Below are positions 20,114 to 47,175 of a stretch of 64,000 nucleotides of DNA, piece after piece. The stretch lies in NCBI RefSeq assembly GCF_051903065.1, contig NZ_CP178438.1. One strand, 5' to 3'. The notes below the pieces were generated by a model. The model saw only the letters and a list, made by a program, of their open reading frames with translations, searched no databases and was not told the origin of the DNA. Within the stretch, counting starts at the first letter, position 1. Every line of letters starts with the position of its first letter. The DNA is from Escherichia coli. GTDB lineage: Bacteria; Pseudomonadota; Gammaproteobacteria; Enterobacterales; Enterobacteriaceae. Both the position numbers and the translations under genes were made by a program.

Positions 20114-20127
20114 CGCTTCCCAACCCG

Positions 20128-21333: not shown

Positions 21334-22065
21334 TCACCTGCCATCCAGTAGACGCCCCAGCCCACGACTGCAACCATAATTACGTTGACCAGAACCGTCA
21401 TGCTGCTTCGTCTCATACTTCACGAGATAACGGGCTCTCTCCATGGCTTTCTGCATCGCTTCCACATCACCACGCTTGACCCAGAGAACAGCGGATCCAC
21501 CAGATTTTTTGTCAGAATCCTTCCGGGTATCAGAACATCCACCAGGCACAGGCGTATCATCGGAAGAAGGGCGAGCATCAGATGATGTCGGTTTACGGAA
21601 AGGCGTCCGCCTGGAAAAATGAACCAGTCCATTACCCTGCCAGGGCTCAAGATGCAGAGCACTGCACCATGCCAGCTTGATCAGTGTCGCCAGCGAAGAA
21701 GGAACGGTGAAATCCCCTGGCGAGCACCAGGTATCTTTGTTGAGCAGTAATATCACGTGATAATGTTTCCTGCCTTTTTCCTTGCCAAACTCCCGACACC
21801 AGAAATAACGCAGAGTGGTTGCACGCACACGCTTGTTGGCACGTCGTTTTTTCCGCTGGTAAGCCTGAATTTTTGCTTTCAGGGATGCAAAAAAACGAGA
21901 AATCACCGCTGAATCTAAATCGGTATCCATGATGGTGGCAGGCATATACTCAGGGAAACGTAAATCCACCCGGATTAACGAGACGGCACGGTGTTGCGCC
22001 AGGGCACCGTTGAGAATACTTTCAAAACGGGATAACCAGTAAGCATTGTGTATTGGTTGATTCAT
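21334..22065 (-). CDS. YagK/YfjJ-family (inovirus Gp2-like) protein, paralog 3
   Basis: 243 aa; …KHYHVILLLNKDTW… core; preceded by about 1.5 kb of AT-rich ORF-free DNA. Confidence 0.6.
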   Translation of the reverse strand: MNQPIHNAYWLSRFESILNGALAQHRAVSLIRVDLRFPEYMPATIMDTDLDSAVISRFFASLKAKIQAYQRKKRRANKRVRATTLRYFWCREFGKEKGRKHYHVILLLNKDTWCSPGDFTVPSSLATLIKLAWCSALHLEPWQGNGLVHFSRRTPFRKPTSSDARPSSDDTPVPGGCSDTRKDSDKKSGGSAVLWVKRGDVEAMQKAMERARYLVKYETKQHDGSGQRNYGCSRGLGRLLDGR

Positions 22066-23579: not shown

Positions 23580-24710
23580 CTATTTCTCATAAATCCACTT
23601 AACTTTTTTTACTGATTCATCCCAGAGAACCACTTTATCAGTAAAAAATGAATTATATAGATTGACGAGTTTTTCTGTTTCAGTTATTCCCAATGCATTA
23701 TGTATCAGTTGTAGATATGCTTTTATCCAGATTTCTTTACCCTCCCTCCACTTATCTATAAAAATTTCCAACTTACTTAATCGTTGATTTATAAAAAATG
23801 AATCAATATCATGAAAAAACTCAACAAGAAAACAGCACGAGATAATCTCAACAAAAAACAAATTCTCCTTAAAAGCATTATAAAACTTTATCAACACATA
23901 ACGAAAAACACCTCCTGTTAACCTTTCCTGTTCATAAAACAACAAGCCAAAAATAGGCGGAAATCTTTTAACCACACCACTTTTAATCCAGTAAGGATGA
24001 TGATTAGTCTTTACTGGCAGTGAATAAAAGAACAATTCGGTTTCTCTTTTCCCACCACAAACAGACAAAACAGTCTTATAAAGACTTTTTGAATCACTAT
24101 ATCCTGACACTCCAGACGAATTAGCAGGGTATTTTCTTTTTACTTTTTGCCTTAATGGAGCTGGAAGAATAATAAAACGGGATGGTAGATAACAATCGCT
24201 TTCAGAAGACCTGCATTCGCACACATGAAGATTTATATTTACATCCGGACAATTCAAAAACCACACAGAATAATTATCGCTCCGTTTGCAATATGAAACC
24301 CATGAATAAATTGCATAAAGTTCAGAAAGTACATCTAACTCTGCTTTTGATTTAAATGTGATACCGTTTCTTCGAATTCTCGTTTCCAGCGTTCTCCATG
24401 CCGGAGTTTTCAGTATCTCACGAACTTTTTTATTAAGTTCAACCAGCGATGGTCCCTGCTCCTGTTTATGTTTCTTCCTGCTGTTAATGATTTCTCTTTC
24501 TTTTACTAATTTTTTCTTACTTTTGGGTCCTTTTATCTTTCTTGGCAATGCTTCATTTAATCTGTGAACAGGATTTTGCTCTCTTCTTTTTTTGAGCTCA
24601 CAAAACCTCTCATAATGTTTTCTGCACAGTCTTTTCTCCACTGCCATTTTTACTGAGAAAACCTGATTGTTACAATTTTTTCTGACGCATTTGTTTTTAC
24701 GTCCGGTCAT
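23580..24710 (-). CDS. Hypothetical low-GC protein with N-terminal Cys cluster
   Basis: 376 aa, Lys-rich; N-terminal CVRKNCNNQ…CRKHYERFC suggests a zinc ribbon; no homolog recognised. Confidence 0.5.
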   Translation of the reverse strand: MTGRKNKCVRKNCNNQVFSVKMAVEKRLCRKHYERFCELKKRREQNPVHRLNEALPRKIKGPKSKKKLVKEREIINSRKKHKQEQGPSLVELNKKVREILKTPAWRTLETRIRRNGITFKSKAELDVLSELYAIYSWVSYCKRSDNYSVWFLNCPDVNINLHVCECRSSESDCYLPSRFIILPAPLRQKVKRKYPANSSGVSGYSDSKSLYKTVLSVCGGKRETELFFYSLPVKTNHHPYWIKSGVVKRFPPIFGLLFYEQERLTGGVFRYVLIKFYNAFKENLFFVEIISCCFLVEFFHDIDSFFINQRLSKLEIFIDKWREGKEIWIKAYLQLIHNALGITETEKLVNLYNSFFTDKVVLWDESVKKVKWIYEK

Positions 24711-24894
24711 CCTCTCATCTCCTGAAACCGCAGTATGTCATTAGTTCCCGTTCTGAAAAACTCACTTCATACTCCATTACACTTTAACAATAATATCCGT
24801 AATTCAGACATTCCATCATTTTTCACGTCCATATTACCTGAATGATAAACCGGATTAGTGTGATCCGGTTCAGTGAAATCAACAGGATACCGGT

Positions 24895-25779
24895 ATGTCA
24901 TTCAGCCATTCTTCCCTCTCCGCACAAGTGAAATCATATCTGACGTTTCTTCCTGAAGAAATTCGTCAGAAAATTCTTGAACATCTCCACAGCGTTATTC
25001 ATTACGAACCCGTGATTGGCATTATGGGTAAATCCGGCACCGGCAAAAGTAGCCTGTGTAATGCTATTTTTCAGTCCCATATCTGTGCCACACATCCCCT
25101 GAACGGCTGCACCCGCCAGGCTCATCGTCTTACCCTGCAGATCGGTGAACGCAGAATGACGCTGGTCGATCTGCCCGGCATTGGAGAGACGCCGCAACAT
25201 GATCAGGAATACCGGGCGCTTTACCGTCAGTTACTGCCGGAAGTGGATTTGATTATCTGGATCCTGCGGGCAGATGAACGCGCGTATGCCGCCGACATTA
25301 CCATGCATCAGTTTTTACTGAATGAAGGCGCAGATCCCTCGCGTTTTCTGTTTGTTCTCAGCCATGCCGATCGCGTGTTTCCTGCTGAAGAATGGAATGC
25401 CACAGAAAAATGCCCGTCCCGTCAGCAGGCGCTCTCACTGGCGACGGTGACAGCCCGGGTGGCAACCCTGTTCCCTTCATCATTTCCGGTACTCTCCGTT
25501 GCTGCACCTGTCGGCTGGAACCTTCCGGCGTTTGTGTCGCTGATGATCCACGCACTGCCACCACAGGCAACCAGCGCGGTGTATTCACATATCCGGGGAG
25601 AAAACCGCTCTGAACAGGCCCAGAAACACGCACAACAGACTTTTGGTGAAACCATCGGGAAAAGTTTTGACGTCGCCGTTGCCCGTTTCAGTTTTCCGGC
25701 CTGGATGTTACAGCTTCTGCGTAAAGCCCGGGACCGCATTATCCACCTGCTGATCACACTGTGGGAGCGTCTGTTCTGA
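24895..25779 (+). CDS. YeeP/YkfA/YfjP-family GTPase (CP4-type prophage)
   Basis: P-loop GIMGKSGTGKSSLCNAIF and DLPG motif; N-terminus close to E. coli YeeP/YkfA. Confidence 0.8.
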   Translation: MSFSHSSLSAQVKSYLTFLPEEIRQKILEHLHSVIHYEPVIGIMGKSGTGKSSLCNAIFQSHICATHPLNGCTRQAHRLTLQIGERRMTLVDLPGIGETPQHDQEYRALYRQLLPEVDLIIWILRADERAYAADITMHQFLLNEGADPSRFLFVLSHADRVFPAEEWNATEKCPSRQQALSLATVTARVATLFPSSFPVLSVAAPVGWNLPAFVSLMIHALPPQATSAVYSHIRGENRSEQAQKHAQQTFGETIGKSFDVAVARFSFPAWMLQLLRKARDRIIHLLITLWERLF

Positions 25780-25981
25780 CACACTCACGCCGACAGGATG
25801 TGTCGCTGGATTAACGAGCATTCTTCTTTTTATGAAATCATGCTTAAAAATCAGATAATTAAAAGAATATTTTTTCTGCTGCATTTTATTCCTGATTATC
25901 CGGATGCGACACATCCTTTCAACATCATGATGCATAATAACATCATGAAATAAAAGATGTTTTCTTACGGAGTGCACATCT

Positions 25982-26662
25982 ATGTCTGATAATCGTTCCC
26001 GGCATGATCGCCTGGCGGTTCGCTTATCACTCATTATCAGCCGACTGATGGCCGGAGAATCTCTGTCACTAAAAACACTGTCAGATGAATTTGGCGTTAC
26101 AGAACGTACTTTACAGCGCGATTTTCATCAGCGTCTGGTTCACCTGGATTTAGAGTACAGAAATGGCAGGTACAGCCTCAGACGACAGAGCAGCCCGGGT
26201 GCGATCCCTGAAATGCTTTCTTTTATACAGAATACCGGGATCGCACGGATACTTCCGCTCCGGAACGGACGACTGATAACCTGTCTTACCGACAACCAGG
26301 AGCCCTCTCCCTGCCTTATCTGGCTACCGGCGCCGGATATCACTGCAACGTTCCCCGAGTGTTTCTCGCAACTCATCCTGGCAATAAGACAGTGTATCCA
26401 CATCTCTCTGATGACTGAGCGATGGTATCCGTCACTGGAGCCCTGCCGGCTCATTTATTACAGCGGTAGCTGGTATCTGATCGCGTTACAGAAGGGAAAA
26501 CTGCAGGTCTTTCCTCTGGCAGATATCAAATCAGTCAGCCTGACATCAGAACGGTTTGAACGGAGAGGCCACATCCACAGTCTGGTCGCTGAAGAGCGTT
26601 TTATCTCCGCCCTGCCACATTTCTCTTTCATCCATAAACTTATCAACACCTTTAACCTGTGA
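25982..26662 (+). CDS. Putative HTH/WYL-type transcriptional regulator (YfjR-like)
   Basis: N-terminal HTH-like region (RLSLIISRLMAGESLSLKTLSDEFGVTERTLQRDF); position after the GTPase matches CP4-type islands. Confidence 0.55.
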   Translation: MSDNRSRHDRLAVRLSLIISRLMAGESLSLKTLSDEFGVTERTLQRDFHQRLVHLDLEYRNGRYSLRRQSSPGAIPEMLSFIQNTGIARILPLRNGRLITCLTDNQEPSPCLIWLPAPDITATFPECFSQLILAIRQCIHISLMTERWYPSLEPCRLIYYSGSWYLIALQKGKLQVFPLADIKSVSLTSERFERRGHIHSLVAEERFISALPHFSFIHKLINTFNL

Positions 26663-26809
26663 TTGCCGGCCTGCCAAAGCCGTCCCGACAGGTATGGAGA
26701 CAATATGTTGAACAGAAAACTAAATATACGGCTACGTCATTCCCTGAACAGTCACTGCATACCTTCCATCATTATCAATAACACCGTACGTTCATTTCAG
26801 AGGTCAGTC

Positions 26810-27487
26810 ATGAATACCAGAGCTCTTTTTCCCCTGCTGTTCACTGTGGCATCATTCTCCGCCTCCGCCGGCAACTGGGCTGTCAAAAACGGCTGGTGTC
26901 AGACCATGACGGAAGATGGTCAGGCGCTGGTAATGCTGAAAAATGGCACGATTGGTATTACCGGCCTGATGCAGGGATGCCCGAATGGTGTACAGACGCT
27001 CCTGGGCAGCCGTATCAGTATTAACGGTAACCTGATCCCCACATCACAAATGTGTAATCAGCAGACGGGATTCAGGGCTGTTGAGGTGGAAATCGGACAG
27101 GCGCCGGAAATGGTCAAAAAAGCCGTTCACTCCATAGCAGAGCGTGATGTGTCCGTTTTACAGGCATTTGGTGTACGAATGGAATTCACCCGCGGTGATA
27201 TGCTGAAGGTCTGTCCGAAATTTGTCACATCACTTGCCGGTTTTTCCCCGAAACAGACGACCACTATTAATAAAGATTCCGTCCTGCAGGCTGCCCGGCA
27301 GGCATACGCCCGGGAATATGACGAGGAAACAACAGAAACCGCTGATTTTGGCTCTTACGAAGTAAAAGGCAATAAGGTTGAGTTTGAAGTATTCAATCCT
27401 GAAGACCGTGCGTACGACAAAGTGACCGTCACGGTTGGTGCTGACGGTAATGCCACCGGCGCCAGCGTTGAATTTATCGGAAAATAG
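26810..27487 (+). CDS. Secreted hypothetical protein
   Basis: GAGG RBS then ATG 26810; signal peptide MNTRALFPLLFTVASFSASA; track ORF from 26663 rejected as a 5' over-extension. Confidence 0.55.
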   Translation: MNTRALFPLLFTVASFSASAGNWAVKNGWCQTMTEDGQALVMLKNGTIGITGLMQGCPNGVQTLLGSRISINGNLIPTSQMCNQQTGFRAVEVEIGQAPEMVKKAVHSIAERDVSVLQAFGVRMEFTRGDMLKVCPKFVTSLAGFSPKQTTTINKDSVLQAARQAYAREYDEETTETADFGSYEVKGNKVEFEVFNPEDRAYDKVTVTVGADGNATGASVEFIGK

Positions 27488-27516
27488 CCGGTATGTAGGA
27501 CTGCCACCCTGTTTTA

Positions 27517-27726
27517 TTGCCCGAAGGCCCTTTCTCACGCGAACAGGCGGTTGCCGTCACAACAGCTTACCGCAATGTGCTTATTGAAGATGACCAGGGA
27601 ACGCATTTCCGGCTGGTTATCCGCAATGCCGAAGGGCAGCTACGCTGGCGGTGCTGGAATTTTGAACCTGATGCCGGAAAACAGCTAAATTCGTATCTCG
27701 CCAGTGAGGGAATTCTCAGGCAATAA
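27517..27726 (+). CDS. DUF905-family protein (YkfF-like)
   Basis: …[53 protein letters not shown]… closely matches YkfF; only a TTG start is available because ATG-TAG sits immediately upstream (27493-27498). Confidence 0.55.
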
Positions 27727-27815
27727 ACGTCTTCATTTCATCCATCAGGCCGCGTCTTCTCCGGGAGACGCGGCCTTTTCGTTTATACCGCTAATTCATT
27801 CATAAGGAGCAAAGT

Positions 27816-28634
27816 ATGCAATTAGCCAGTCGTTTTGGTTATGCGAATCAGATACGCCGTGACCGTCCGCTGACACACGAAGAACTGATGCACTATGTAC
27901 CCGGTATTTTTGGGGAAGACCGGCATACCTCCCGCAGTGAACGCTATACGTATATCCCCACCATCACCGTGCTGGAAAGTCTGCAGCGGGAAGGCTTTCA
28001 GCCGTTCTTCGCCTGCCAGACCCGTGTGCGCGACCCGGGCCGCCGGGGATACACCAAACATATGCTGCGTCTGCGGCGGGCCGGAGAGATAAACGGAGAA
28101 CATGTCCCTGAAATTATTCTGCTCAACTCTCATGACGGTACCTCCAGCTACCAGATGCTGCCGGGTTACTTCAGGTTCGTCTGCCAGAACGGATGCGTCT
28201 GTGGTCAGTCTCTGGGGGAAGTGCGTGTTCCGCACCGGGGAAATGTGGTGGAGAAAGTTATTGAAGGGGCTTACGAGGTGGTGGGGGTTTTTGACCGGAT
28301 AGAGGAGAAGCGTGATGCCATGCAGTCGCTGGTCCTGCCGCCACCGGCACGCCAGGCGCTGGCACAGGCGGCACTGACTTACCGTTATGGTGACAAACAT
28401 CAGCCAGTCACCACTGCCGACATTCTGACACCACGACGCCGGGAGGATTACGGTAAGGACCTGTGGAGTGCTTATCAGACCATCCAGGAGAATATGCTGA
28501 AAGGCGGAATTTCCGGTCGCAGTGCCAGAGGAAAACGTATCCACACCCGTGCCATTCACAGCATCGACACCGATATTAAGCTCAACCGCGCATTGTGGGT
28601 GATGGCAGAAACGCTGCTGGAGAGCATGCGCTGA
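27816..28634 (+). CDS. DUF932-family protein (YfjQ/YafZ-like)
   Basis: 272-aa ORF with the conserved CP4-island DUF932 pattern as recalled. Confidence 0.65.
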   Translation: MQLASRFGYANQIRRDRPLTHEELMHYVPGIFGEDRHTSRSERYTYIPTITVLESLQREGFQPFFACQTRVRDPGRRGYTKHMLRLRRAGEINGEHVPEIILLNSHDGTSSYQMLPGYFRFVCQNGCVCGQSLGEVRVPHRGNVVEKVIEGAYEVVGVFDRIEEKRDAMQSLVLPPPARQALAQAALTYRYGDKHQPVTTADILTPRRREDYGKDLWSAYQTIQENMLKGGISGRSARGKRIHTRAIHSIDTDIKLNRALWVMAETLLESMR

Positions 28635-28725
28635 TGCTGTTTCCCTGAAAGTGCAGCCCTGACTCACGTCTGTACCAGTCCCCAGGCATTCTTCCATTCA
28701 TTTGCTTTTTATAAGGAATAATCTC

Positions 28726-29211
28726 ATGACAACCTCTTCGCATAATTCCACCACACCTTCTGTTTCCGTAACTACTGCATCAGGGAATAACCAGTCTCAA
28801 CTGGTTGCCACTCCCGTCCCTGATGAACAGCGCATCAGCTTCTGGCCGCAGCACTTTGGCCTCATTCCACAGTGGGTGACCCTGGAGCCCCGTGTCTTCG
28901 GCTGGATGGACCGTCTGTGTGAAGACTACTGCGGTGGTATCTGGAATCTGTACACCCTGAATAACGGCGGCGCATTTATGGCGCCCGAACCGGATGAAGA
29001 TGATGGAGAAACCTGGGTACTGTTCAATGCCATGAACGGTAACCGCGCTGAAATGAGCCCGGAAGCCGCCGGCATTGCTGCCTGTCTGATGACGTACAGT
29101 CATCATGCCTGTCGTACGGAGTGTTATGCCATGACGGTCCATTATTATCGGTTGCGGGATTACGCCCTGCAACATCCGGAATGCAACGCCATTATGCGCA
29201 TCATTGACTGA
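28726..29211 (+). CDS. Antirestriction protein (KlcA/ArdB family, YfjX/YafX-like)
   Basis: AAGGA RBS then ATG 28726; …RISFWPQHFGLIPQWVTLEPRVFGWMDRLCEDYCGGIWNLY… is typical of the family. Confidence 0.7.
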   Translation: MTTSSHNSTTPSVSVTTASGNNQSQLVATPVPDEQRISFWPQHFGLIPQWVTLEPRVFGWMDRLCEDYCGGIWNLYTLNNGGAFMAPEPDEDDGETWVLFNAMNGNRAEMSPEAAGIAACLMTYSHHACRTECYAMTVHYYRLRDYALQHPECNAIMRIID

Positions 29212-29225
29212 AAGGGGCCGGAACA

Positions 29226-29702
29226 ATGCAACAGCTTTCCTTTCTGCCCGGAGAGATGACGCCCGGCGAGCGCAGCCTCATTCAGCGGGCCCTGAAAACC
29301 CTGGACCGCCATCTTCATGAACCCGGCGTGGCCTTCACCTCCACGCATGCGGCACGGGAATGGCTGATTCTGAACATGGCAGGACTGGAGCGGGAAGAGT
29401 TCCGGGTGCTGTATCTGAACAACCAGAATCAGCTGATTGCGGGTGAAACCCTCTTCACAGGCACCATCAACCGCACAGAAGTCCATCCCCGGGAGGTGAT
29501 TAAACGTGCCCTGTACCACAATGCCGCTGCCGTGGTGCTGGCGCACAATCACCCGTCCGGTGAAGTCACCCCCAGTAAGGCAGACCGGCTTATCACTGAA
29601 CGTCTGGTACAGGCGCTGGCCCTGGTGGATATCCGGGTGCCGGACCATCTGATAGTCGGTGGCAGCCAGGTATTCTCCTTTGCCGAACACGGTCTGCTTT
29701 AA
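29226..29702 (+). CDS. RadC-like JAB-domain protein (YeeS/YkfG family)
   Basis: JAMM-like HNHPSGEVTPSKAD motif. Confidence 0.8.
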   Translation: MQQLSFLPGEMTPGERSLIQRALKTLDRHLHEPGVAFTSTHAAREWLILNMAGLEREEFRVLYLNNQNQLIAGETLFTGTINRTEVHPREVIKRALYHNAAAVVLAHNHPSGEVTPSKADRLITERLVQALALVDIRVPDHLIVGGSQVFSFAEHGLL

Positions 29703-29788
29703 CCCGTCACCGTCACAATCACCTTCATATCACTTCAGTTTCTCTTTCTCAGCTGTTTCTTACTTTCACATTCAGGAGGACTATTCTC

Positions 29789-30010
29789 ATGAAAATCATC
29801 ACCCGTGGTGAAGCCATGCGTATTCACCGTCAGCATCCTGCATCCCGTCTTTTTCCGTTCTGTACCGGTAAATACCGCTGGCACGGTAGCACGGATACAT
29901 ATACCGGCCGTGAAGTACAGGATATTCCCGGTGTGCTGGCTGTGTTTGCAGAACGCCGTAAGGACAGTTTTGGTCCGTATGTCCGGCTGATGAGCGTCAC
30001 CCTGAACTGA
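29789..30010 (+). CDS. DUF987-family protein (YeeT-like)
   Basis: MKIITRGEAMRIHRQHPASRLFPFCTGKYRWHGS…, near-identical to YeeT as recalled. Confidence 0.7.
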   Translation: MKIITRGEAMRIHRQHPASRLFPFCTGKYRWHGSTDTYTGREVQDIPGVLAVFAERRKDSFGPYVRLMSVTLN

Positions 30011-30089
30011 GTCTGGAAGGGCATTCAGAAGAGCAGAATTATCGCCACCACCGGACCATTCTTAACCAATTTTCTGTGAGGATTTTATC

Positions 30090-30458
30090 GTGTCAGACAC
30101 ACTCCCCGGGACAACGCTTCCCGACGACAATAACGACCGCACCTGGTGGGGACTGCCCTGCACCGTGACGCCCTGTTTTGGGGCACGTCTGGTGCAGGAG
30201 GGTAACCGGTTGCATTACCTTGCAGACCGCGCCGGTATCAGAGGCCGGTTCAGCGACGCGGATGCGTACCATCTGGACCAGGCCTTTCCGCTGCTGATGA
30301 AACAACTGGAACTCATGCTCACCAGCGGTGAACTGAATCCCCGCCATCAGCATACCGTCACGCTGTATGCAAAAAGGCTGACCTGCGAAGCCGACACCCT
30401 CGGCAGTTGTGGCTACGTTTATATGGCTGTTTATCCGACGCCCGAAACGAAAAAGTAA
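30090..30458 (+). CDS. cbeA: CbeA/YeeU-family antitoxin (type IV TA)
   Basis: MSDTLPGTTLPDDNNDRTWWGLPCTVTPCFGARLVQEGNRLHYLADRAGI… matches YeeU. Confidence 0.8.
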   Translation: MSDTLPGTTLPDDNNDRTWWGLPCTVTPCFGARLVQEGNRLHYLADRAGIRGRFSDADAYHLDQAFPLLMKQLELMLTSGELNPRHQHTVTLYAKRLTCEADTLGSCGYVYMAVYPTPETKK

Positions 30459-30547
30459 CTCTCCAGAATAACCTTCTTCTCCGGCCTGGTGCTTTCACCA
30501 CGCCACTTTTCCATTTTTCATCTCTGCATATCAGGAAAATCTTCAGT

Positions 30548-30925
30548 ATGAACACATTACCCGATACACACGTACGGGAGGCATCGCATTGCCAGTCTCC
30601 CGTCACCATCTGGCAGACACTGCTCACCCGACTGCTGGACCAGCATTACGGCCTCACACTGAATGACACACCGTTCGCTGATGAACGTGTGATTGAGCAG
30701 CATATTGAGGCAGGCATTTCACTGTGTGATGCGGTGAACTTTCTCGTTGAAAAATACGCACTGGTGCGTACCGACCAGCCGGGATTCAGCGTCTGTACTC
30801 GTTCTCAGTTAATAAACAGTATTGATATCCTCCGGGCCCGCCGGGCAACCGGCCTGATGGCCCGCGACAATTACAGAACGGTAAATAACATTACCCTGGG
30901 TAAACATCCGGGGGCGAAACAATGA
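30548..30925 (+). CDS. cbtA: CbtA/YeeV-family toxin (cytoskeleton-binding)
   Basis: Internal ATG 30548 (MNTLPDTHVREASHCQSPVTIWQTLLTRLLDQHYGLTLNDTPF…); track ORF from 30407 is an over-extension. Confidence 0.8.
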   Translation: MNTLPDTHVREASHCQSPVTIWQTLLTRLLDQHYGLTLNDTPFADERVIEQHIEAGISLCDAVNFLVEKYALVRTDQPGFSVCTRSQLINSIDILRARRATGLMARDNYRTVNNITLGKHPGAKQ

Positions 30926-31410
30926 AACTGGCCCTGACGCTGGAAGCCGACAGCATTAACGTGCAGGCACTGAACATGGGGCGCATTGTCGTTGACGTCG
31001 ATGGTGTTACTCTCGCTGAACTGATTAACGTGGTCTGCGATAACGGTTACTCCCTTCGTGTTGTTGATGAATCTGACCGGACATCAGCAGAGCGCACGCC
31101 ACCATCTGCGGCCCTTACCGGCATACGCTGCAGTACCGCACATATCACGGAAACGGACAATGCCTGGTTGTACTCGCTGTCAAATCAGACGAATGACACC
31201 GGCGAATCAGAATGGATTCATTTCACAGGTAGCGGATATCTGTTACGTACCGATGCGTGGTCATACCCGGTTCTGCGGCTTAAACGCCTGGGGCTGTCCA
31301 GAACGTTCCGCCGTCTGGTTGTCACACTCATCCGGCGTTATGGCGTCAGTCTCATTCATCTGGATGCCGGTGCTGAATGTCTGCAGGATTTACCCACTTT
31401 CAACTGGTAA
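30922..31410 (+). CDS. YeeW-like protein
   Basis: ATG overlaps the cbtA stop (ATGA); 162 aa; position and sequence consistent with YeeW. Confidence 0.55.
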   Translation: MKLALTLEADSINVQALNMGRIVVDVDGVTLAELINVVCDNGYSLRVVDESDRTSAERTPPSAALTGIRCSTAHITETDNAWLYSLSNQTNDTGESEWIHFTGSGYLLRTDAWSYPVLRLKRLGLSRTFRRLVVTLIRRYGVSLIHLDAGAECLQDLPTFNW

Positions 31411-31429
31411 CCAGGACAAAAGACACAGG

Positions 31430-31627
31430 ATGAAATCATTAACCACAGAAACGGCGCTGGATATTCTGATTGTGTGGCTGCAGGACAATATCGACTGCGA
31501 ATCGGGAATTATCTTTGACAACGATGAGGATAAAACGGATTCGGCAGCACTGTTGCCCTGTATCGAACAGGCCAGGGAGGGTATCCGTACCCTGCGCCAA
31601 CTGCAGCTTCTGCACCAGAACCGATAA
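31430..31627 (+). CDS. Small hypothetical protein (65 aa)
   Basis: ATG 31430 (MKSLTTETALDILIVWLQDNIDCESGIIFDNDEDK…); the longer track ORF 31058-31627 overlapping yeeW is rejected. Confidence 0.4.
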   Translation: MKSLTTETALDILIVWLQDNIDCESGIIFDNDEDKTDSAALLPCIEQAREGIRTLRQLQLLHQNR

Positions 31628-32098
31628 ATATTACTCACCATACTTCATTCCACTGACGCCAGCCTGAACAGGGCTGGCGTTTTCATTTATCTGCAAAAAG
31701 GAATATCAATTATGTCTGAAATCACAGCCTCCCGTCCGGAAGTGGTCAACGGGGACATTATCTGCTCCACCTCAGTCAGCCACATTCTGGCTGTACAAAA
31801 GAGTACACAGCTGCAAATCGACACACTTATCCGGCATCAAGTGAGCGATATCAGTTAACAGATATAGATGGAGAAGATGCTTTTATCCGGATTGGTTCTA
31901 TCGCGATGGTGCGAGTACTACTTGATGCAATGAAGCCTGTCGAGGAAGATGACGAGTAACAGAGCTCGGTATCTCAATCAGGAGCTGATTGTCCTGGTTC
32001 GATGCCGAAAACCAGTGATTTTTCGTGTTGGTATCTGTGTTGGTATAAGATGATATTGTTTATTATTAACAATTTTAAATCATGAGGTTAAGTCACAT

Positions 32099-32122
32099 GT
32101 TCGAGTCCGGCCTTCGGCACCA
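32099..32122 (+). repeat. 24-bp copy of the tRNA-Leu (leuX) 3' end: island boundary direct repeat
   Basis: GTTCGAGTCCGGCCTTCGGCACCA equals the leuX T-arm/acceptor 3' end (from memory); no D-arm or anticodon arm upstream, so it is an att fragment, not a tRNA gene. Confidence 0.65.
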
Positions 32123-32346
32123 CATCGTATGCAAATCGAGTCGCTCAAGGGCGGCTTTTTTTGTGTCTGGAATCCGTTAGTTACCTATCTTTCTCGCTAT
32201 TTTAACTCTCTCAGAGCCAGCCAATTTCAACCCATCGCAAACGAAAAATGTTGGTACAGGCGTTGGTATTTTCGGTTCGACATTAATTTGTATTAGCTCA
32301 GTCCTGATCTGACAGCTATCTGCCAGATCAGGTTCGGATTAATACA

Positions 32347-35300
32347 TTATATCTGCCCGCCTACACCTTTAAACTTCTCAATAAACGCGACGATCTTCTG
32401 GAAAACCGTCTGTTTTTTCGTCTTATATTGCGGATTTAACGGACTGAGTTTTGGCAATGTCTCGTTTAATTCCGTGCCATTTTCGGTTGCGTATTCGCGT
32501 TTTAAAGACGTGCGAATATAGCGTTTCGCCGCCTCTTCATTGAGATTTTCTTCTTTGATCAATGCTGCTGCTTCACGTTGCTGTTCGCGTTGAGCAAAGG
32601 TAAAAAACGCGTCAATGATGCTGGCTTTATCCGGCAAATCATCCAGGTTCGTTTGCTGAATAAAATCGACCACCAATCCTTCTTTGGCACGGTTCCCAAG
32701 GCTTGAACGAATTAAGCGTTTGACCTCTTCGGTCATTTCGCCCTTACCTTTGTTTTGTCTGTTGTGTTCGAAAATCAGTCCAAGGATATAATCCAGGTTT
32801 ATTTCCTGAGACTTCAGCAAATCGACCTCAAAAACCACGTCATCCCAGTCGGTGGTTGATTTTTCTTTTTTGTCAGCTTCTTTCTCACGGCGCTGCCAGT
32901 CACGAATATCGTTATAGGCTGAACGGTAATCCTGAATCTTGCGATCAGCAGGGAGACGAATCGTTTGTAATTCAGCGAACTTTTCATCATCCACATAATG
33001 TTCTGCTTTGAATTTTTCTACCGCAACAGGATCGCTAAGATCGATTTGTTGCAGGGCTTTCAGCATGGCAAATTCATCATAGTTTTGCAGGATGTTCTCG
33101 GCACGCAGGTATTCACCAAACAGTTTTACGAAGTCTTTCTTCTCTTTTTCACTTTCAATATTGGCAGGGTCAGGGAACCGTTGTTCCAGTTCTGAAACTA
33201 CTGCCATAAAGCCGCGTTTAGCTTCACCAGTGGCAGCATCAGTAAAGCCTTCCATATACTCTGCATAACTCTTTTCTAACACCACATTTTTGGTATTTTT
33301 ATCACCAAACAGCGTTATGGCATCAATGGTTGAGCGTTCCAGATCCCGGAAAGTGACGATGTTACCGAAGGTTTTAGTGGCGTTATAAATGCGGTTGGTG
33401 CGGGAAAATGCCTGCATCAGGCCGTGAAAACGCAAGTTTTTATCGACGAATAGCGTGTTCAATGTTGGAGCATCGAAGCCGGTTAAAAACATCCCCACGA
33501 CAATTAACAGATCGATATCTTGATTTTTAACCCGTTGGGCTAAATCACGATAGTAGTTCTGAAAACCGTTACTGTCGGTGCTGAAGTTAGTTTTAAAATA
33601 GCTGTTATACTCACGAATTGCAGCGTCAAGAAACTCTTTAGCACTGCTGTCCATTGCGCTGGTATCAAAAGTTTCATCGGAAATTTCACCAATGGCATTT
33701 TGCTCTTCATTGGCGGCAAAGGAGAAGATTGTCGCAACACGCAGCGGTTTATAAGTAGCCGATTTATTAGCTGCTTCCTCTTGTAACCGTTTAAACGTAG
33801 CGTAATAGGCTTTCGCGGCATCCACGCTACTCACTGCCAGCATGGCATTAAAGCCTTTGGAACTTGGGAAAGTACGGTGGGTCTTCTGGCGGAAGTTATT
33901 CAGAATATATTGCGTAATTTCCTGTATACGCATGGGATGAAGAAACGCCTGCTGATTTTCAGCCGCACTCAGTTTTTTCTCGTCGGTTTCTGTCTCTAAA
34001 GACTTAAACTGTGGCCGCACATCGTTGTAGTCCACCTTGAATTTGAGCACTTTTTCATCACGAATCGCATCGGTAATCACATATGAATGCAATTCACGAC
34101 CAAATACGCTGGCGGTCGTTTCTGAGCCTAAAGCGTTTTCCGGGAAAATAGGGGTACCGGTAAAACCAAACTGATAATAGCGTTTGAATTTCTTCTTCAG
34201 ATTTTTCTGCGCTTCTCCAAACTGGCTGCGGTGACATTCATCAAATATAAACACCACTTGCTGATTGTATACAGGCAGGTCGCTTTCTGCTTTCATCAGG
34301 TTATTAAGTTTCTGAATAGTGGTGACGATAATTTTGTTATCGTCCTTATCCAGATTTCGTTTAAGACCTGCTGTATTTTCCGAGCCGTTAACACTATCTG
34401 GCGAAAAACGCTGATATTCCTTCATGGTCTGGTAATCGAGGTCTTTCCTGTCGACCACAAAGAAGACTTTATCAATAAAGTCCAGTTCTGTTGCCAGACG
34501 TGCGGCTTTAAAGCTGGTCAGGGTTTTACCAGAACCGGTTGTGTGCCAGATAAAGCCACCGCTTTCGGGGGTAGACCAGTTTTTCGCTTTATAGGAGCTG
34601 TTGATTTTCCATAAGATACGCTCAGTGGCGGCAATCTGGTACGGTCGCATCACTAGTAGCGTTTGGCTAATATCGAACACGCTGTAGTTCACTAAGACAT
34701 TAAGCAGAGTATGTTTCTGGAAAAAGGTAGCGGTAAAGTCTTTGAGGTCTTTAATCAGCGTGTTGTCTGATTTCGCCCAATTCATGGTGAAATCAAAACT
34801 GTTTTTATCGCGCTTTGTGGTGTTGGCAAAATAACGGGTATCGGTGCCGTTAGAAATGACAAACAGTTGCAGATACTTAAACAGGGAATTTTCGCTGTTA
34901 AAACTCTCTTTACTGTAACGATGTATTTGGTTGAAAGCCTCACGAATCGCCACGCCGCGCTTTTTCAGTTCGATTTGTACCAGTGGTAAGCCATTAACCA
35001 GGATCGTGACGTCATAACGGTTAGCATGAGAACCCGCCTGTTCAAACTGCTGGATAATCTGCACCTTATTGCGCATGAGATTCTTTTTATCTATCAGATA
35101 GATATTTTCAAGACGCCCGTCATCAAAAATAAAGTCGCAGATATAGTCGATATGAATTTTACGGGTTTTATCCAGGATGCCATCGCTGGGGTTGTCCAGA
35201 TACTGCTCCGTGAAACGCCGCCACTCGCTGTCATTAAACACCACACCATTGAGGTTCTGAAGCTGTTCCCGAACATTGGACAGCATCGCCGACTGTGATT

Positions 35301-35463
35301 TTACCGAAATAAATTCATAGCCCTGATTCCGCAGGTCCTGAATCAGTTCCCGTTCCAGGTCCGATTCGCTCTGGTAGCTGTCGCCTGTTTGCTCAGCTTT
35401 GATGTACTTATCAAGGACGATAAAGTTATTGGATTCAGCAATGGTGTGTGTTTGATGAGTCAT
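32347..35463 (-). CDS. hsdR: Type I restriction enzyme R subunit (Type IC, EcoR124-like HsdR)
   Basis: 1038 aa (same length as EcoR124I HsdR as recalled); helicase motifs TGSGKT and DECHRSQ. Confidence 0.95.
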
Positions 35464-35584
35464 AGCGCATCCTTTGTGCCGCCTGGCAAGGGCCGGAAGG
35501 GCGTTAAGAGTGACTTCCGGCGCGTAAAAAATAGTCTATATACAGACCGGGTGTTAAGGTGGCCCGGTCGGTAGCAATGGTCAA

Positions 35585-36865
35585 TTAGTTACTGATAGTT
35601 TCAGGTTTGGGAAAACTGAACAGTAAATCACGATAGTACTCGTATTGTTTCTGGCGCAACTCGATTTCACGCGGGAGGCCTTCGGTGATGGAGTTTGTCA
35701 GAGTGTCGAATTTATCGAGTATTGCGACGATACGAGCTTGTTCCTTAAGTGATTTTTCGTGATCTTTAGGATATGGAACCGGAATCATAATTTTTGAAAA
35801 ACCATTAATGAGTAGTGTATTAACTTTTGTTCTGGCTACATACTTTGCTTTTTCAGAAATAAACGAATCGGTTTGCATGTAATAGGAAATAAATTTTGGA
35901 TTCAAAGAATGTCGAAAAGCATAACAGTGATCATGAATAGCGATATCGTCATCCCCAAGCCATGCCACTGCTTTACCAACGTCTTCTACAGTCTCCCCCA
36001 CGTCAGTTATCACGACATCTCCATGTTTGGCATAGCGTAATGACGCTGCCATATCAGCTCTAACCTGTGATAACGAATGAGTTGTGTAAACACCATATCG
36101 TGTATATATCTCACCATAATGGATTACACTGATACCACCATCTTCTACATAATCTGCTTTAGTAAAACGTTTTCCACGAATAAACTCACCAATTTCCCCC
36201 AAAGTCTTCCACTCAACCTCACCCTCTTTAAAACTCAACAACTGGTCGCGATAGTAGTTGTACTGTTTTTTACGCATGGTAAGCTCTGCTGTAAGCTCTG
36301 CTGTAAGCTCAGTAAATTTATCCAGAATCCGAACGATTTCAGACTGGATGGCAAGGGATTTTTCCGGATTGCCCGGGCAGGGGATGGGGATGAGTAGTTT
36401 TGACATCAATGCATTTGAGCTTAGATTCGGCTGTGCTCCGCCCCCTGCAAGGATATAAATAGTCTCTGTATTTAACAATAAAAAATGGTATAAATAATTA
36501 TTGTTTAGAATATTTTCTTTGGGTATAAATTTCCCAACACGTTGGTTAAGATAACATTTTATTCCTTTTTTATAAATTCCCACTTTTCCTGTAGTGGCAC
36601 CTGACATTGCAATCAATATATTTCCCATAGATACCTCAAAGGAGGATAAATCTTCCTTGTAATCATTTAGTGAAAAGTATTTCACCTCATCTAAGTCAAC
36701 ATTAAACCCATCTATATTTGTGATTCTAACTATCGGTAACCCAGTTTCTTTAAATAAGCTGCTTTTAAATGCAAATCCATTTTTAAAATCACAAACATCC
36801 TTCAGGGTTTTCCACTCAACCTCAACCCCATCCAGCAATTTTTCCAGATAACTCAACTCGCTCAT
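35585..36865 (-). CDS. hsdS: Type I specificity subunit HsdS (Type IC)
   Basis: Two target-recognition domains separated by the conserved …[23 protein letters not shown]… region with the TAEL repeat; ATG overlaps the hsdM stop. Confidence 0.9.
36279..36310. repeat. 12-bp tandem repeat in hsdS (TAEL repeat, 2 copies plus a partial)
   Basis: GTAAGCTCTGCT x2 then GTAAGCTC on the plus strand, encoding TAEL-TAEL in the HsdS central region. Confidence 0.7.
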
Positions 36866-38416
36866 TTCTGCACCCCGCAGCCTTCAATTTCAGCCACAAT
36901 CGCATCAATATCTTTGCGCAACTGGTCGATTTTGCTGACCGTGGTTTTCAGCTCAGCATTCAGCTCACCGATATCGATAATTTCGCGAGTATCTTTCGCT
37001 TCAACATAGCTGCTCACCGACAGGTTATAGTCATTCGCTACAACGGCTTCAAACGCGACAGATTTCGCCAGATGAGCAACATCTTCCTTGCTGGCAAATA
37101 CCTGCATAATCTGTTCGATATGGGCATCGGTCAGGATATTGTTGTTGGTCTCTTTTTTGAACAGTTCGCTGGCGTCAATAAACTGAACTTTGGTATCGGT
37201 TTTATGTTTAGACAGCACCAGAATATTGACGGCAATAGTGGTGCCAAAGAACAGGTTCGGTGCCAGTGAAATCACGGTTTCGACATAGTTATTATCGACC
37301 AGATACTGACGGATTTTCTGCTCCGCGCCGCCACGGTAAAAAATACCCGGGAAGCAAACAATCGCAGCGCGACCTTTGGCCGAAAGATAGTTCAGCGCAT
37401 GTAGTACAAAGGCGAAGTCAGCTTTGGATTTGGGGGCCAGGACGCCAGCCGGGGCAAAACGTTCATCGTTAATCAGCGTCGGGTCATCGCTGCCAATCCA
37501 TTTCACCGAATACGGCGGGTTAGAAACGATGGCATCAAACGGTTTTTCATCTCTGAAGTGCGGCTCAGTCAGTGTATTGCCCAACTTGATATCAAACTTG
37601 TCGTAGTTGATGTTGTGCAAAAACATGTTCATACGCGCCAGGTTATAGGTCGTATGGTTGATCTCCTGACCAAAAAAGCCTTCTTCGATGATATGGTCAT
37701 CAAACTGCTTTTTCGCCTGCAACAACAGCGAACCGGAACCTGCGGCCGGGTCGTAGATTTTGTTAACGTGGGTCTGCCCGTGCATAGCCAGTTGTGCAAT
37801 CAGCTTAGAGACGTGCTGCGGTGTAAAGAACTCGCCGCCTGACTTACCAGCATTCGCGGCATAGTTAGAAATCAGGAACTCATAGGCATCGCCGAACAGG
37901 TCAATCTGATGTTCGTTAAAGTCGCCAAGCTTTAACCCTTCAACCCCTTTCAGAACCGCAGCCAGGCGGGCATTTTTATCCTTAACGGTGTTACCCAGGC
38001 GGTTACTGGTGGTATCGAAATCAGCAAACAAACCTTTGATGTCAGCTTCTGAAGGGTAACCGTAAGCAGAACTTTCGATAGCAACGAAGATGCTGTTTAA
38101 ATCTGCATTCAGTCTGTCATTGGTATTTGCTTTCGCAGCTACGTTGCAGAAAAGCTGACTTGGGTAGATGAAGTAGCCTTTGGTTTTGATGGCATCGTCT
38201 TTAATGTCATCAGTTATTACGCTGTCATCCAGTTTCGCATAACAGATACTGTCATCACCGGCTTCAATATAGCTGGAAAAATTTTCGCTGATAAAACGGT
38301 AGAAAAGCGCGCCCAGAACGTATTGCTTAAAGTCCCATCCATCGACCGAACCTCTGACATCGTTAGCAATTTGCCAGATCTGGCGATGAAGCTCCGCGCT
38401 GCTGAAGACTGGTCAT
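36862..38416 (-). CDS. hsdM: Type I methyltransferase HsdM (Type IC), apparent frameshift near codon 8
   Basis: C-terminal 389 aa intact (NPPY motif, …[11 protein letters not shown]…). ATG 38416-38414 with AAGGA RBS reads MTSLQQR, but the conserved …[23 protein letters not shown]… continues in another frame. Confidence 0.8.
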
Positions 38417-38722
38417 TTTTTATCCTTTGAATGTGTTTTTAACGTCGGCTTTTGCCGGGATTTTACCGGAAGTTGTTTGGTTTTTCAGATTTGTATGACG
38501 GTGAGGAGGGGATTCAGTACCAGATTGTTAGTGCATCTTACTCAGCATTCACCGCTTGAGTCAGGAGGCTACTTTATATGCCCATCGCCCATCCGTAGGT
38601 GATCAGATAATTTATTGCGAGTCACCTTCCCGATTTTCAATCTCATTATTTACCCAATCTTTCACCAGTGGATAATTCGTCTGCTACTAACGGCGAGTGT
38701 ATTTTTTTACGGATGAAAGATT

Positions 38723-39556
38723 ATGCAAACAGAAGCTGAAGTCTTAACCGATCATAACGAACTAATTTGCTCGACCAGTATTGAGCGTATCGTCACAGGA
38801 CGTGATAGTGCACTGAACCAGATAGCGGCGTTAATCCAAAAGCTTGATGATATCTCCAGCCTGACATCCAGTATTGGCGGTGATGTGGCTGGAACCTGGG
38901 CAATGCGTAATGGATATGCCTTTGATTGCTGGCTGATGCAGCCAACCGACAAAGCGATGCCGGTGATCACCCGAAATATCGATCGCAGTATCTGGCGCGA
39001 TCTCATGCTGAAGTCCGGTATGTTGACTCTGATGGATGCCGAAGCTCGCAGTCAGTGGGCAAAGAATCTGGAGGAGGGCGATCTCCCGGCGATTAGCGAA
39101 GCCAACATCCTGAGTACCTTTGAACAACTTCACCACAATAAGCAGGATGTTTTCGAACGTGGGATTATCAATGTATTTAAGGGATTGAGCTGGGATTACA
39201 AAACCAATAATCCCTGTTATTTCGGTAAGAAGATTATCGTTAACAATCTGGTGAAGCATGACCGATGGGGCTACAGCCTGCACTGGGGCTGGCGGCGAGA
39301 TCAGCTTGCCGATCTGGAACGGATGTTCTATCTGCTGGATGGGAAGGTCATTCCCGATAACCGGCATGATGTTGCGATTCGGTTTATGGACTTCGTTAGT
39401 GCTCACCCGCATGAGCAGGTATTTAATGACGATTTATTTGTCATCCGCTATTACCAGAAAGGCAGTGGGCATATCACATTCAAGCGACTGGATCTGGTGG
39501 ATAAGATGAATGACATTGTGGCGAAGCACTATCCGTCAGCGTTATCAGCAAAATGA
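38723..39556 (+). CDS. Hypothetical protein (277 aa) upstream of the McrBC-like pair
   Basis: ORF with ATG start, same strand as the McrBC-like genes, separated from them by about 360 bp; no catalytic motif recognised. Confidence 0.5.
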   Translation: MQTEAEVLTDHNELICSTSIERIVTGRDSALNQIAALIQKLDDISSLTSSIGGDVAGTWAMRNGYAFDCWLMQPTDKAMPVITRNIDRSIWRDLMLKSGMLTLMDAEARSQWAKNLEEGDLPAISEANILSTFEQLHHNKQDVFERGIINVFKGLSWDYKTNNPCYFGKKIIVNNLVKHDRWGYSLHWGWRRDQLADLERMFYLLDGKVIPDNRHDVAIRFMDFVSAHPHEQVFNDDLFVIRYYQKGSGHITFKRLDLVDKMNDIVAKHYPSALSAK

Positions 39557-39914
39557 ATGTCGTATGTTTGCTGTCAATAATGTCGTTACTGGAACCCTCT
39601 GAATTTCGGCATATCCATTTACTGGAAACGATGTTTACCTAAAAACAGTTGATTCCCTATGCAACTAGAAACCTCACACAGGTTGAAAAACGAGTAGCGA
39701 TTTTACGTATGAAAGAATGCTATAGCCTTCTCTGAGAGCCATCAACATCATGCGTTTTGCAGTTAAGTCATCAGATAAATGTGGTGGCTCCAGGGCAGAA
39801 GGTAATTTCAGGATGAAAGTTATTTTTTTTATCACAAAATTTAACATTTTTGAGATTAATCCGATAAGATAAGGCTATCCCAATTTCCCTCCCCCCTACA
39901 TATTGGATTAAGAG

Positions 39915-41969
39915 ATGGTTCAGGATTCATCAGCATTAGCCCCCTTCTTTCGTGCTCAAATTGAAAAAAATAATCAATACAATTCAGTTTGGGGCAAACA
40001 CTACCGCCAGCTTGTAGAACAGATTCAGGCCGAAAAACCAAACTTTTCTGAAGCCACGATTCGGCAGGTATGGTATGAACGTGACAATGGTGTCTCCAGC
40101 CTGATGCAAGGAGGGATGTCATTGGTTGAATTTGAAAATGCACAAAAAGACCTTCTAACGCTCACCCGTCAGATAGCAGAAGAGTGTACACAAGAAAATT
40201 ATAATCGGGTCATTGAACGCCTTATCAAACTTAAAGCGGACGGAGTATTAAATAAGGTATATAGGGCTCTTTGTAATCGTGCTTTTGCAGCAATATACCC
40301 ATCAAAAATTAGCAGTGTCGTGAATGTTAATAATTTTTTTAGTTGCTACAATTATTGCAACAACCATTTCCAGCTAGGTCTTTCCGGAGAACGGGAGTGG
40401 CTGGCTCGCAATGTTGATCTTAAAGAAACGCTAAATCGTGCGCTGGGTGATGATATCGACCCTATTGAGCTGAATATGTCACTTTGGCATCTCTATGCGT
40501 ATGAAATTCAGGATAAAAATGCTATCGGTTTAGTTGGAAGCGAAAGTGCTTTACAAGAAAATGAGCAAGAAGATGATGTTATAAGTTCGCCATTGCCTAA
40601 AAACACAATTCTCTATGGCCCGCCAGGTACAGGTAAAACATATCGTACTATTGAGCTTGCTGTACAAATTTGTGATCCGATCGCTTACTCCCTGCAGGAG
40701 GGTAAGGATGAGAGTGAAAAACGTCGCGAGTTGAAAAAGATTTATGATCAGCTTATCAAAGAAAATCGAGTGCGTTTTATCACCTTTCATCAGAGCTTTG
40801 GTTATGAAGAGTTTATTGAAGGTTTAAGAGCTGAGACTACTGATGACGGTAATGTAAAATACGAAATAAAGGCAGGTATTTTTAAGCAGATATGCGAGGA
40901 TGCCGCCTTTGGTCATGCTGGTGCGCAGGAAATGTTAGATAGCGCACTTACTCGCCTACAAGAACGTTTATCTGAAGGTGAAAATATCACGCTGGAAACA
41001 CAACAGGGTAAGGCCTTCCAGCTGACGTATAAAAGTCAAACCAACTTTGGAATTTTCCCGTCACAATCGAAAAAAGAGGATTTAGGACAGGGTTACAATG
41101 CCTATTTGAAGGATATTCGGCAAGTTTATCAGGATCCACGAGCAAAAGTACATAATCCATCTTATGTACGCAGTATCCTTAACTATTTAATTAATCAACG
41201 TTATCTGCCTCTGAATACTCAGAGCGTAGCTTCAGAAAAAAAGGAAAACTATGTTCTCATTATTGATGAAATAAATCGGGGTAATATTTCAAAAATTTTC
41301 GGTGAACTAATTACCCTTATTGAGCCATCTAAACGGGCTGGTGAGCCAGAATCGCTTAGCGTATTGCTGCCATACTCTTCCACTCCATTTAGTGTGCCGA
41401 ATAACCTTTATTTAATTGGTACCATGAACACTGCTGATCATTCGCTTACTGCACTTGATACTGCACTACGTCGCAGATTTGATTTTGAAGCGATGCTGCC
41501 AGATATTACTGTTCTGAAAGATACTGTCATTAAAGGTATTGATCTGCCTCGTCTATTGCAGACGCTTAACGATCGCATCCAGGTTTTATACGATAGAGAA
41601 CATATGCTGGGGCATGCTTTTTTTATCCCTGTTGTGCAGGCAAAAGAAGACGAAGCTCTGGCATTTGAAAGATTCAAACGGATTATGCGAAATAAGATAC
41701 TACCATTGCTGGAAGAATATTTTTACAATGACTGGCAAAAAATTCGCATGGTACTGGCTGATAACCAAAAAGAGGAAGCACCAGATCTTCAATTTGTACG
41801 TGAGGTGAAATACCAGAAAAAGTATGCCGATCTCTTTGGTGATAACGGAACAGATGACTTGGGAACCAGTTTTCACCTGGCAGCAGAGGATGACAACGTT
41901 TGGGACAATCCAATCGCCTGGCAGCAAATTTATGCACCTCAAAAAGAAAAACGCAGGAGTGCGGAATGA
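39915..41969 (+). CDS. McrB-family AAA+ GTPase with non-canonical N-terminal domain
   Basis: 684 aa; Walker A LYGPPGTGKT, Walker B LIIDEINRGN, McrB-type GTMNTAD motif; the first ~230 aa is a helical region of unknown type. Confidence 0.85.
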   Translation: MVQDSSALAPFFRAQIEKNNQYNSVWGKHYRQLVEQIQAEKPNFSEATIRQVWYERDNGVSSLMQGGMSLVEFENAQKDLLTLTRQIAEECTQENYNRVIERLIKLKADGVLNKVYRALCNRAFAAIYPSKISSVVNVNNFFSCYNYCNNHFQLGLSGEREWLARNVDLKETLNRALGDDIDPIELNMSLWHLYAYEIQDKNAIGLVGSESALQENEQEDDVISSPLPKNTILYGPPGTGKTYRTIELAVQICDPIAYSLQEGKDESEKRRELKKIYDQLIKENRVRFITFHQSFGYEEFIEGLRAETTDDGNVKYEIKAGIFKQICEDAAFGHAGAQEMLDSALTRLQERLSEGENITLETQQGKAFQLTYKSQTNFGIFPSQSKKEDLGQGYNAYLKDIRQVYQDPRAKVHNPSYVRSILNYLINQRYLPLNTQSVASEKKENYVLIIDEINRGNISKIFGELITLIEPSKRAGEPESLSVLLPYSSTPFSVPNNLYLIGTMNTADHSLTALDTALRRRFDFEAMLPDITVLKDTVIKGIDLPRLLQTLNDRIQVLYDREHMLGHAFFIPVVQAKEDEALAFERFKRIMRNKILPLLEEYFYNDWQKIRMVLADNQKEEAPDLQFVREVKYQKKYADLFGDNGTDDLGTSFHLAAEDDNVWDNPIAWQQIYAPQKEKRRSAE

Positions 41970-43276: not shown

Positions 43277-43338
43277 TATTTGTAGGCTATCTCTTTATAC
43301 AATTTATTTGTCTATTTGTATGCACAAGATAGCCTACC

Positions 43339-44998: not shown

Positions 44999-45005
44999 TG
45001 AACGC

Positions 45006-47156: not shown

Positions 47157-47175
47157 TGTGACTGTCTCCTGTCTA

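Follow-up and report, generated by a model that had tools for sequence, protein, structure and literature searches.

A 24-bp copy of the leuX 3' end at the junction between a ~45-kb island and a restriction cluster in Escherichia coli

Results

The 24-bp repeat and its match to leuX

The window analysed here, a 64,000-nt stretch of Escherichia coli DNA (contig NZ_CP178438.1 of RefSeq assembly GCF_051903065.1), carries island DNA on its left side and a cluster of restriction genes on its right. Between the two lies a 24-bp sequence that had been taken, from the letters alone, for the 3' end of the tRNA gene leuX. The features immediately around it are:

32026..32046, + strand, GTTGGTAT repeat pair with 12-bp spacing (52 bp left of the core; position and layout as in P4 attP)
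32099..32122, + strand, probable attR core, a leuX 3'-end direct repeat (exact match, P4 core, cross-genome breakpoints)
32123..32295, + strand, pre-existing leuX downstream flank (joined to intact leuX in 204 genomes; homologous to a leuX-int spacer)
32138..32167, + strand, intrinsic terminator-like hairpin (32138-32157) with a T-run tail, at the same place as the post-leuX hairpin in attL
32249..32269, + strand, second repeat pair, GTTGGTAC / GTTGGTAT, with 12-bp spacing (126 bp right of the core)
32289..32346, no strand assigned, imperfect inverted repeat of 27 nt (complementarity 74%, loop of 4 nt), filling the interval from the relic arm to the hsdR stop codon

The 24-mer (GTTCGAGTCCGGCCTTCGGCACCA) was present as a single exact copy, at 32099-32122 on the + strand, and no further copy was found in the window on either strand when up to three mismatches were allowed; at the same tolerance, matches were obtained in none of 100 dinucleotide-preserving shuffles. 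Scans for degenerate or partial copies (at most 4 mismatches in 24 positions, 3 in 17 or 2 in 14) yielded nothing credible in the window, their sole match, a 14-mer at 59442 inside gntP, being rejected as spurious. When leuX (tRNA-Leu(CAA), 85 nt) was read in two E. coli genomes (loci L002 13897-13981 and L004 18001-18085), its last 24 nt, including the encoded CCA, were identical to the 24-mer at 24 of 24 positions. Identity broke at the 5' edge of the repeat, where GTTCGAG is preceded by cacaT in the window and by gccgG in leuX, and the remaining tRNA body is absent beside the 24-mer, just as the original prediction had described it. ARAGORN detected no tRNA gene in the 64 kb, and the Rfam tRNA model gave no match at E <= 1 in 31000-33000, no cloverleaf being recognized at the 24-mer. 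A snoRNA match in the Rfam scan of 31-33 kb fell below threshold and was dismissed as chance. The corresponding copy in genome EM03-18-08 (L001 ~10127-10149) is 23 nt in length, one G of a CGGC run being gone; attR may have decayed there, or the short homopolymer may be misassembled.

The island to the left of the repeat

The left part of the window contains:

1..32098, + strand, distal part of the ~45.2-kb leuX island (ungapped match to E. coli GDSC2BY4G at 99.956%; RefSeq annotation; Pfam CbtA, CbeA and DUF5983)
14429..14665, - strand, AlpA-family helix-turn-helix (HTH) ORF of 78 aa (Pfam Phage_AlpA, E = 2e-10; HTH regulator in the GDSC2BY4G annotation)

BLAST aligned window 1-32122 with the genome of GDSC2BY4G (NZ_CP136025.1) in one ungapped stretch with 14 mismatches (99.956% identity), and this alignment stops on the final base of the 24-mer. 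In GDSC2BY4G two copies of the 24-mer, perfect direct repeats on the same strand, lie 45,182 bp apart and thus delimit an island of ~45.2 kb, while an intact leuX with an adjoining integrase gene is found ~13.1 kb upstream of the base corresponding to window position 1, leuX itself lying beside the core gene ahr. It had been proposed that leuX and an integrase would be located upstream, that the repeat would prove to be a direct copy and that everything to its left in the window would be island DNA; each of these expectations was borne out in this relative. Given its collinearity with GDSC2BY4G, the leuX and int genes upstream and the direct repeats, window 1-32098 is island DNA throughout and represents the distal 32.1 kb of the element. 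In the source genome of the window, leuX and int presumably also lie upstream of position 1, as judged from this near-identical relative.

The integrase of GDSC2BY4G is encoded by a 421-aa ORF whose start lies 186 bp past leuX. It contains the domains Arm-DNA-bind_3, Phage_int_M and Phage_integrase, all above the Pfam cut-offs, and shares 59.5% identity with P4 Int over 97% of its length. Moving from window position 1 towards leuX, the GDSC2BY4G island encodes a patatin-like phospholipase, RdcB, a dynamin-family protein and a GTPase, and further on an IS5 element, an outer-membrane protein and a phosphoethanolamine transferase before the 421-aa tyrosine recombinase is reached. Cargo within the window comprises IS elements, a group II intron, a YadA-like adhesin, H-NS, a restriction endonuclease and a GTPase, together with DUF932, an antirestriction protein, JAB/RadC, a CbeA/CbtA toxin-antitoxin pair, DUF5983 and DUF957. 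The AlpA-family ORF at 14429-14665 (- strand) is a candidate excisionase or directionality factor of the island.

The left part of the island is rich in insertion sequences, above all in and around the 8-13 kb region, with two copies of IS1 and remnants of IS630, IS256, IS3 and IS110. A group II intron reverse transcriptase/maturase gene (ltrA; 10706-12214, + strand) is nested in IS3 fragments there, with a degraded gene of the IS110 family next to it. The same island contains two separate YagK/YfjJ (inovirus Gp2-like) genes (15554-16120 and 21334-22065, both on the - strand), one accompanied by an AlpA-family gene of its own, and an H-NS gene is located close by.

Upstream cargo varies among islands with this right end. 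Genomes EM03-18-08 and STIN_95 share the right end of the window's island and differ greatly in what precedes it; their islands are longer than the 45-50 kb examined, leuX not being reached within 45-50 kb upstream of the junction in either genome. Relatives sharing this right end carry PAI II-like cargo, e.g. dsdCXA and cdiBA.

Repeats flanking the core

The left repeat pair (TGTTGGTATCTGTGTTGGTAT, 32026-32046) and the right one (TGTTGGTACAGGCGTTGGTAT, 32249-32269) flank the 24-mer on both sides, and paired GTTGGTAY repeats also occur upstream of int in attL, where TGTTGGTACAGATGATGGTAT aligns with the right pair. All four GTTGGTAY sites of the 64-kb window lie within the two pairs that flank the core; their number is not above chance (4 found against 3.15 expected), and it is only their clustering and P4-like layout that are informative. 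By analogy of position, the GTTGGTAY repeats would be bound by Int. The pair at 32026-32046 is a putative set of arm-type integrase sites belonging to the distal (P) arm of the island, and the pair at 32249-32269 is interpreted as relic arm-type sites.

Breakpoints across genomes

The window to the right of the repeat finds its closest counterpart in a different genome. Window 32099-48357 aligned with 23CRST027 with 0 mismatches, in an alignment that opens on the first base of the 24-mer and starts, in 23CRST027, inside an intact leuX; beyond the 24-mer the two differ only by a 12-bp indel and by two IS903B copies inserted in 23CRST027. The near-perfect alignments with GDSC2BY4G and 23CRST027 therefore overlap in the 24-bp core only, which is the signature of site-specific recombination within that core. 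GC content also drops at the joint, from 0.50-0.55 to 0.43.

Both states of the locus were searched for in 5,426 complete E. coli genomes. The unoccupied arrangement, ahr-leuX-flank-hsdR, was found in 204 of them, counted with a query made of the ahr-leuX spacer, leuX, the flank and the end of hsdR at a coverage of at least 80%. An earlier query was confounded since occupied junctions likewise passed 80% coverage, and another since its matches ran on into int-proximal arms, diverged in sequence, that belong to other islands. The occupied junction (island end, 24-mer and hsdR) was present in 46 genomes, at identities of 94% to 99%. GDSC2BY4G has the same left flank and a perfect 24-mer at its attR, followed directly after ACCA by unrelated sequence, so that the island end joins different right flanks in different genomes. 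That right flank (L003 16447-17738) contains an AbiJ-NTD4 gene, then ISKpn26 and then a fimH fragment, and the hsd-to-fimG stretch of the window is missing to the right of its attR.

The window as a whole was carried by none of the 5,426 complete genomes. One genome matched the left 25 kb (window 1-25000 against GDSC2BY4G, 99.9%), and no genome covered the 20-45 kb part of the window at more than 90% coverage and more than 98% identity.

The defence cluster and nanS

The right side of the window contains the following genes, the calls within the cluster resting, unless stated otherwise, on Pfam and the RefSeq annotation of relatives:

32347..45002, no strand assigned, defence cluster of 12.7 kb (its right limit set by the resumed homology in ~5,000 genomes)
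32347-35463, - strand, hsdR, type IC (Pfam EcoR124_C domain)
35585-36865, - strand, hsdS
36862-38416, - strand, hsdM, frameshifted
38723-39556, + strand, DUF4942 gene
39915-41969, strand not given, mcrB
41966-43276, strand not given, mcrC
43339-44268, - strand, HNH_2 nuclease gene, annotated as phosphorothioate-DNA-binding
44348-44998, strand not given, HNH nuclease gene
45006..45986, - strand, nanS (Pfam SASA domain), the nearest gene on the right side of the repeat to be common to most E. coli genomes

The defence cluster does begin directly to the right of the repeat, as had been proposed: hsdR converges on the repeat with its stop codon at 32347, 225 bp from the 24-mer, and is followed by hsdS, hsdM, the DUF4942 gene, mcrB, mcrC and the two HNH nuclease genes. 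At the far end, 5,055 of the 5,426 genomes match from query position 752-804, equivalent to window 44,951-45,003, i.e. from the nanS stop codon. Since homology resumes in ~5,000 genomes at nanS, the accessory region spans leuX to nanS. The idea that nanS had been truncated by the defence cluster (PGAP marks it as partial in relatives) was rejected, as ~5,000 genomes match from its stop codon onwards. No second leuX-derived repeat was found at the right end of the defence cluster at up to 4 mismatches in 24 positions, 3 in 17 or 2 in 14, and the cluster hence has no recognizable distal att site.

Several peculiarities were observed within the cluster. The hsdM gene has a 2-bp (GC) deletion after about codon 7, near 38399, relative to EM03-18-08, which breaks the frame of the type IC methylase. 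23CRST027 carries an identical deletion, and its hsdM is labelled frameshifted in RefSeq; hsdR and hsdS are intact. The 12-bp indel, at 36279 in the central region of hsdS, is the sole difference from 23CRST027 across 9.6 kb and corresponds to two TAEL repeats in the window against three in 23CRST027. We take this change to resemble the 4-residue repeat difference between EcoR124I and EcoR124II, which alters the spacer length of the recognition site. The DUF4942 gene keeps its position between the type IC hsd operon and mcrBC in all relatives examined. MMC-J-0085 and B1, with the same junction, encode an 'anticodon nuclease' (PrrC-like) inside the hsd cluster; this gene is absent from the window, in which hsdS and hsdM overlap directly.

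The flank between the repeat and hsdR

The segment 32123-~32295 could be aligned with the leuX-int spacer of the GDSC2BY4G island at 79% identity (129 of 163 columns; alignment score 102, whereas 300 shuffles reached at most 15), and the two share both the position of the terminator and the repeat pair. This homology runs out approximately where the start codon of int would be. From the 79% identity of this ~170-bp flank to the leuX-int spacer, the hsd/mcrBC/HNH cluster appears to be headed by an integrase-less relic of an older leuX element, and the simplest reading of the flank is that it is what remains, on the integrase-proximal side, of an older P4-type leuX element now lacking int. An intact int downstream of this exact arm was found in no genome. 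Where the site is unoccupied, the hairpin at 32138-32167 would terminate leuX transcription, and the inverted repeat at 32289-32346 may be either the terminator of hsdR or the joint at which the hsd block replaced int.

In more than 1,000 genomes, other islands end next to the first 42-53 nt of the flank; in one of these (L008) an IS3 element and an integrase fragment come after the first 53 nt, and in another (L007) an element with a P4-like primase-helicase precedes the flank. An arm homologous to it, at 80-100% identity, was found downstream of leuX in 2,365 genomes. These flank arrangements in other genomes lend support to repeated insertion at leuX.

Discussion

The 24-mer is best explained as the attR core left by site-specific integration of the ~45-kb island into the 3' end of leuX, catalysed by the island's own P4-type tyrosine integrase, a reading to which we assign a probability of about 0.9. 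The mechanism we propose builds on established knowledge of P4 and other arm-type integrases. The circular form of the island would carry an attP whose core is identical to the leuX 3' end; Int would bind the arm-type repeats on both sides of this core and strand exchange would take place inside it, giving attL, an intact leuX followed by int, at one end of the island and, at the other, attR with its 24-bp partial copy. With regard to the order of events, an older leuX element would have inserted first and lost its int, and the 45-kb island would later have inserted between leuX and the relic, so that the defence cluster would already have been in place before the island arrived. The island may still be able to excise.

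The alternative that carries most weight accepts the same att site and differs in its history: the scar would be real but old, and a GDSC2BY4G-like island would have been paired with a 23CRST027-like flank by homologous recombination of large flanking segments between strains whose leuX was already occupied, rather than by a fresh integration. We regard this as unlikely, if by no means negligible. The presence of the occupied junction in 46 genomes at 94% to 99% identity means that it predates the lineage of the window, and the very different upstream cargo of islands with this right end (EM03-18-08, STIN_95) points to frequent internal shuffling, both of which speak for such an exchange. The switch from one closely matching genome to the other, however, falls within the 24 bp itself, so a RecA-mediated exchange would have to resolve in a very short stretch, and GDSC2BY4G joins the same island end to a different right flank, as expected of independent insertion of the island.

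A second alternative, in which duplication or deletion of leuX left the 24-mer behind as a stump, i.e. a pseudo-tRNA fragment formed with no integrase involved, accounts for a tRNA fragment that lacks detectable tRNA structure. It is, however, effectively refuted by an extent equal to the P4 attP core plus 4 nt, by the intact leuX with an adjacent P4-type int lying 45.2 kb away in direct orientation in GDSC2BY4G, by edges that are both precise joints across genomes, and by the P4-like paired repeats on either side. A chance match to leuX can be dismissed outright, given identity at 24 of 24 positions, the 0 of 100 shuffles matching with 3 mismatches allowed and an arithmetical expectation of ~5e-10 exact 24-mer matches when both strands, 128 kb in all, are counted.

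As the edge of the 45-kb island, the boundary put forward in the original prediction holds; it is not the outer edge of the accessory DNA, since a relic arm lies to its right and conserved sequence begins only at nanS (~45,003). Within the tandem series of insertions that extends from leuX to nanS, the 24-mer marks an internal joint. The two YagK/YfjJ genes of the island on the left, one with an AlpA-family gene of its own, suggest that this element may itself have arisen by fusion of two CP4-type elements, between which no leuX repeat survives.

A more far-reaching proposal concerns the relic arm, which keeps a near-consensus repeat pair. The attR would thus form a complete attP-like site on the chromosome, with a P arm, a core and a P'-like arm, that might alter excision or integration, and the leuX terminator and its 'native' flank would be domesticated island DNA. 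We consider this improbable and offer it only as speculation. If it were true, such a pseudo-attP might stabilize the island or favour further tandem insertions, and the leuX terminator and 'native' flank of hundreds of E. coli genomes would be domesticated island DNA heading an integrase-less defence cluster.

The repeat is a correctly identified feature of a known kind at a known locus, hotspot #37, and was in this sense already known; the sole addition to the known picture is the relic arm, which shows tandem accretion. The value of the result is practical only: it provides a base-precise annotation boundary between the 45-kb leuX island on the left and, on the right, the 12.9-kb hsd/mcrBC/HNH cluster that ends at nanS.

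Comparison with known systems

A close parallel is the satellite phage P4 (X51522), which targets the same gene, leuX, and whose 20-bp attP core, as annotated (GAGTCCGGCCTTCGGCACCA), coincides with the final 20 nt of the 24-mer. Its attP is annotated with one tandem pair of 12-bp arm repeats on either side, at a distance of 53 bp upstream of the core and, beside int, of 112 bp downstream; in the window the pairs lie 52 bp before and 126 bp after the core, and the integrase has the same three-domain build as P4 Int. The differences are that identity with leuX extends over 24 bp here against 20 bp in P4, that the island is 45 kb in length and that the arm-repeat motif is GTTGGTAY here against TGGGGGCAT in P4, which fits a related integrase with a different arm specificity. 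The flank has no alignable similarity to the int-proximal arm of P4, only the architecture being in common. Across the full 45 kb of the island in GDSC2BY4G, neither a P4 primase-helicase nor late or capsid-hijacking genes appear in the RefSeq annotation; by that annotation, the island has a P4-type integration module and is not a P4 satellite.

The CP4-57 and CP4-44-type elements of K-12 have the same right-end module as the window, namely an AlpA-family HTH protein, a YfjJ/Gp2-like protein, a GTPase, DUF932, an antirestriction protein, JAB/RadC, DUF987, CbeA/CbtA and DUF5983. In the window this CP4-type module belongs to a leuX island, whereas the K-12 elements are found at other sites, CP4-57 being integrated at ssrA. 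A leuX island of K-12 is KpLE2.

Many named islands share the leuX site, which is among the most frequently targeted tDNAs of E. coli (PMC7545054). PAI II536, the leuX islands of CFT073, UTI89 and ED1a (PAI-CFT073/UTI89/ED1a-leuX) and GI-leuX of ST131 likewise have a P4-like, leuX-specific integrase and flanking direct repeats, and restore a complete tRNA. For PAI II536 the P4-like Int has been described as highly specific for leuX, and the direct repeats matter for excision (PMC3202238). Unlike these pathogenicity islands, the window carries no virulence set, its cargo consisting of IS-rich DNA and a CP4-type module (GTPase, DUF932, antirestriction protein, RadC, CbeA/CbtA).

Finally, the locus corresponds to hotspot #37, which is anchored at leuX, mobilized by an arm-type integrase at the anchor and hypervariable in content (PMC12707154, a 2025 review). 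According to the same review it ranks first in occupancy among 41 E. coli defence islands, with defence genes in 97% of isolates and type IC systems present; the hotspot goes back to Hochhauser et al. (2023), as summarized there (PMC12707154). The window agrees with hotspot #37 in its position and in its type IC restriction-modification system. The review places the integrase at the left anchor, and the hsd/mcrBC block of the window has no integrase of its own, only the relic arm, and lies directly beside leuX in 204 genomes. The tandem arrangement with its relic arm illustrates, with no new principle, how the leuX hotspot (#37) grows by successive insertions.
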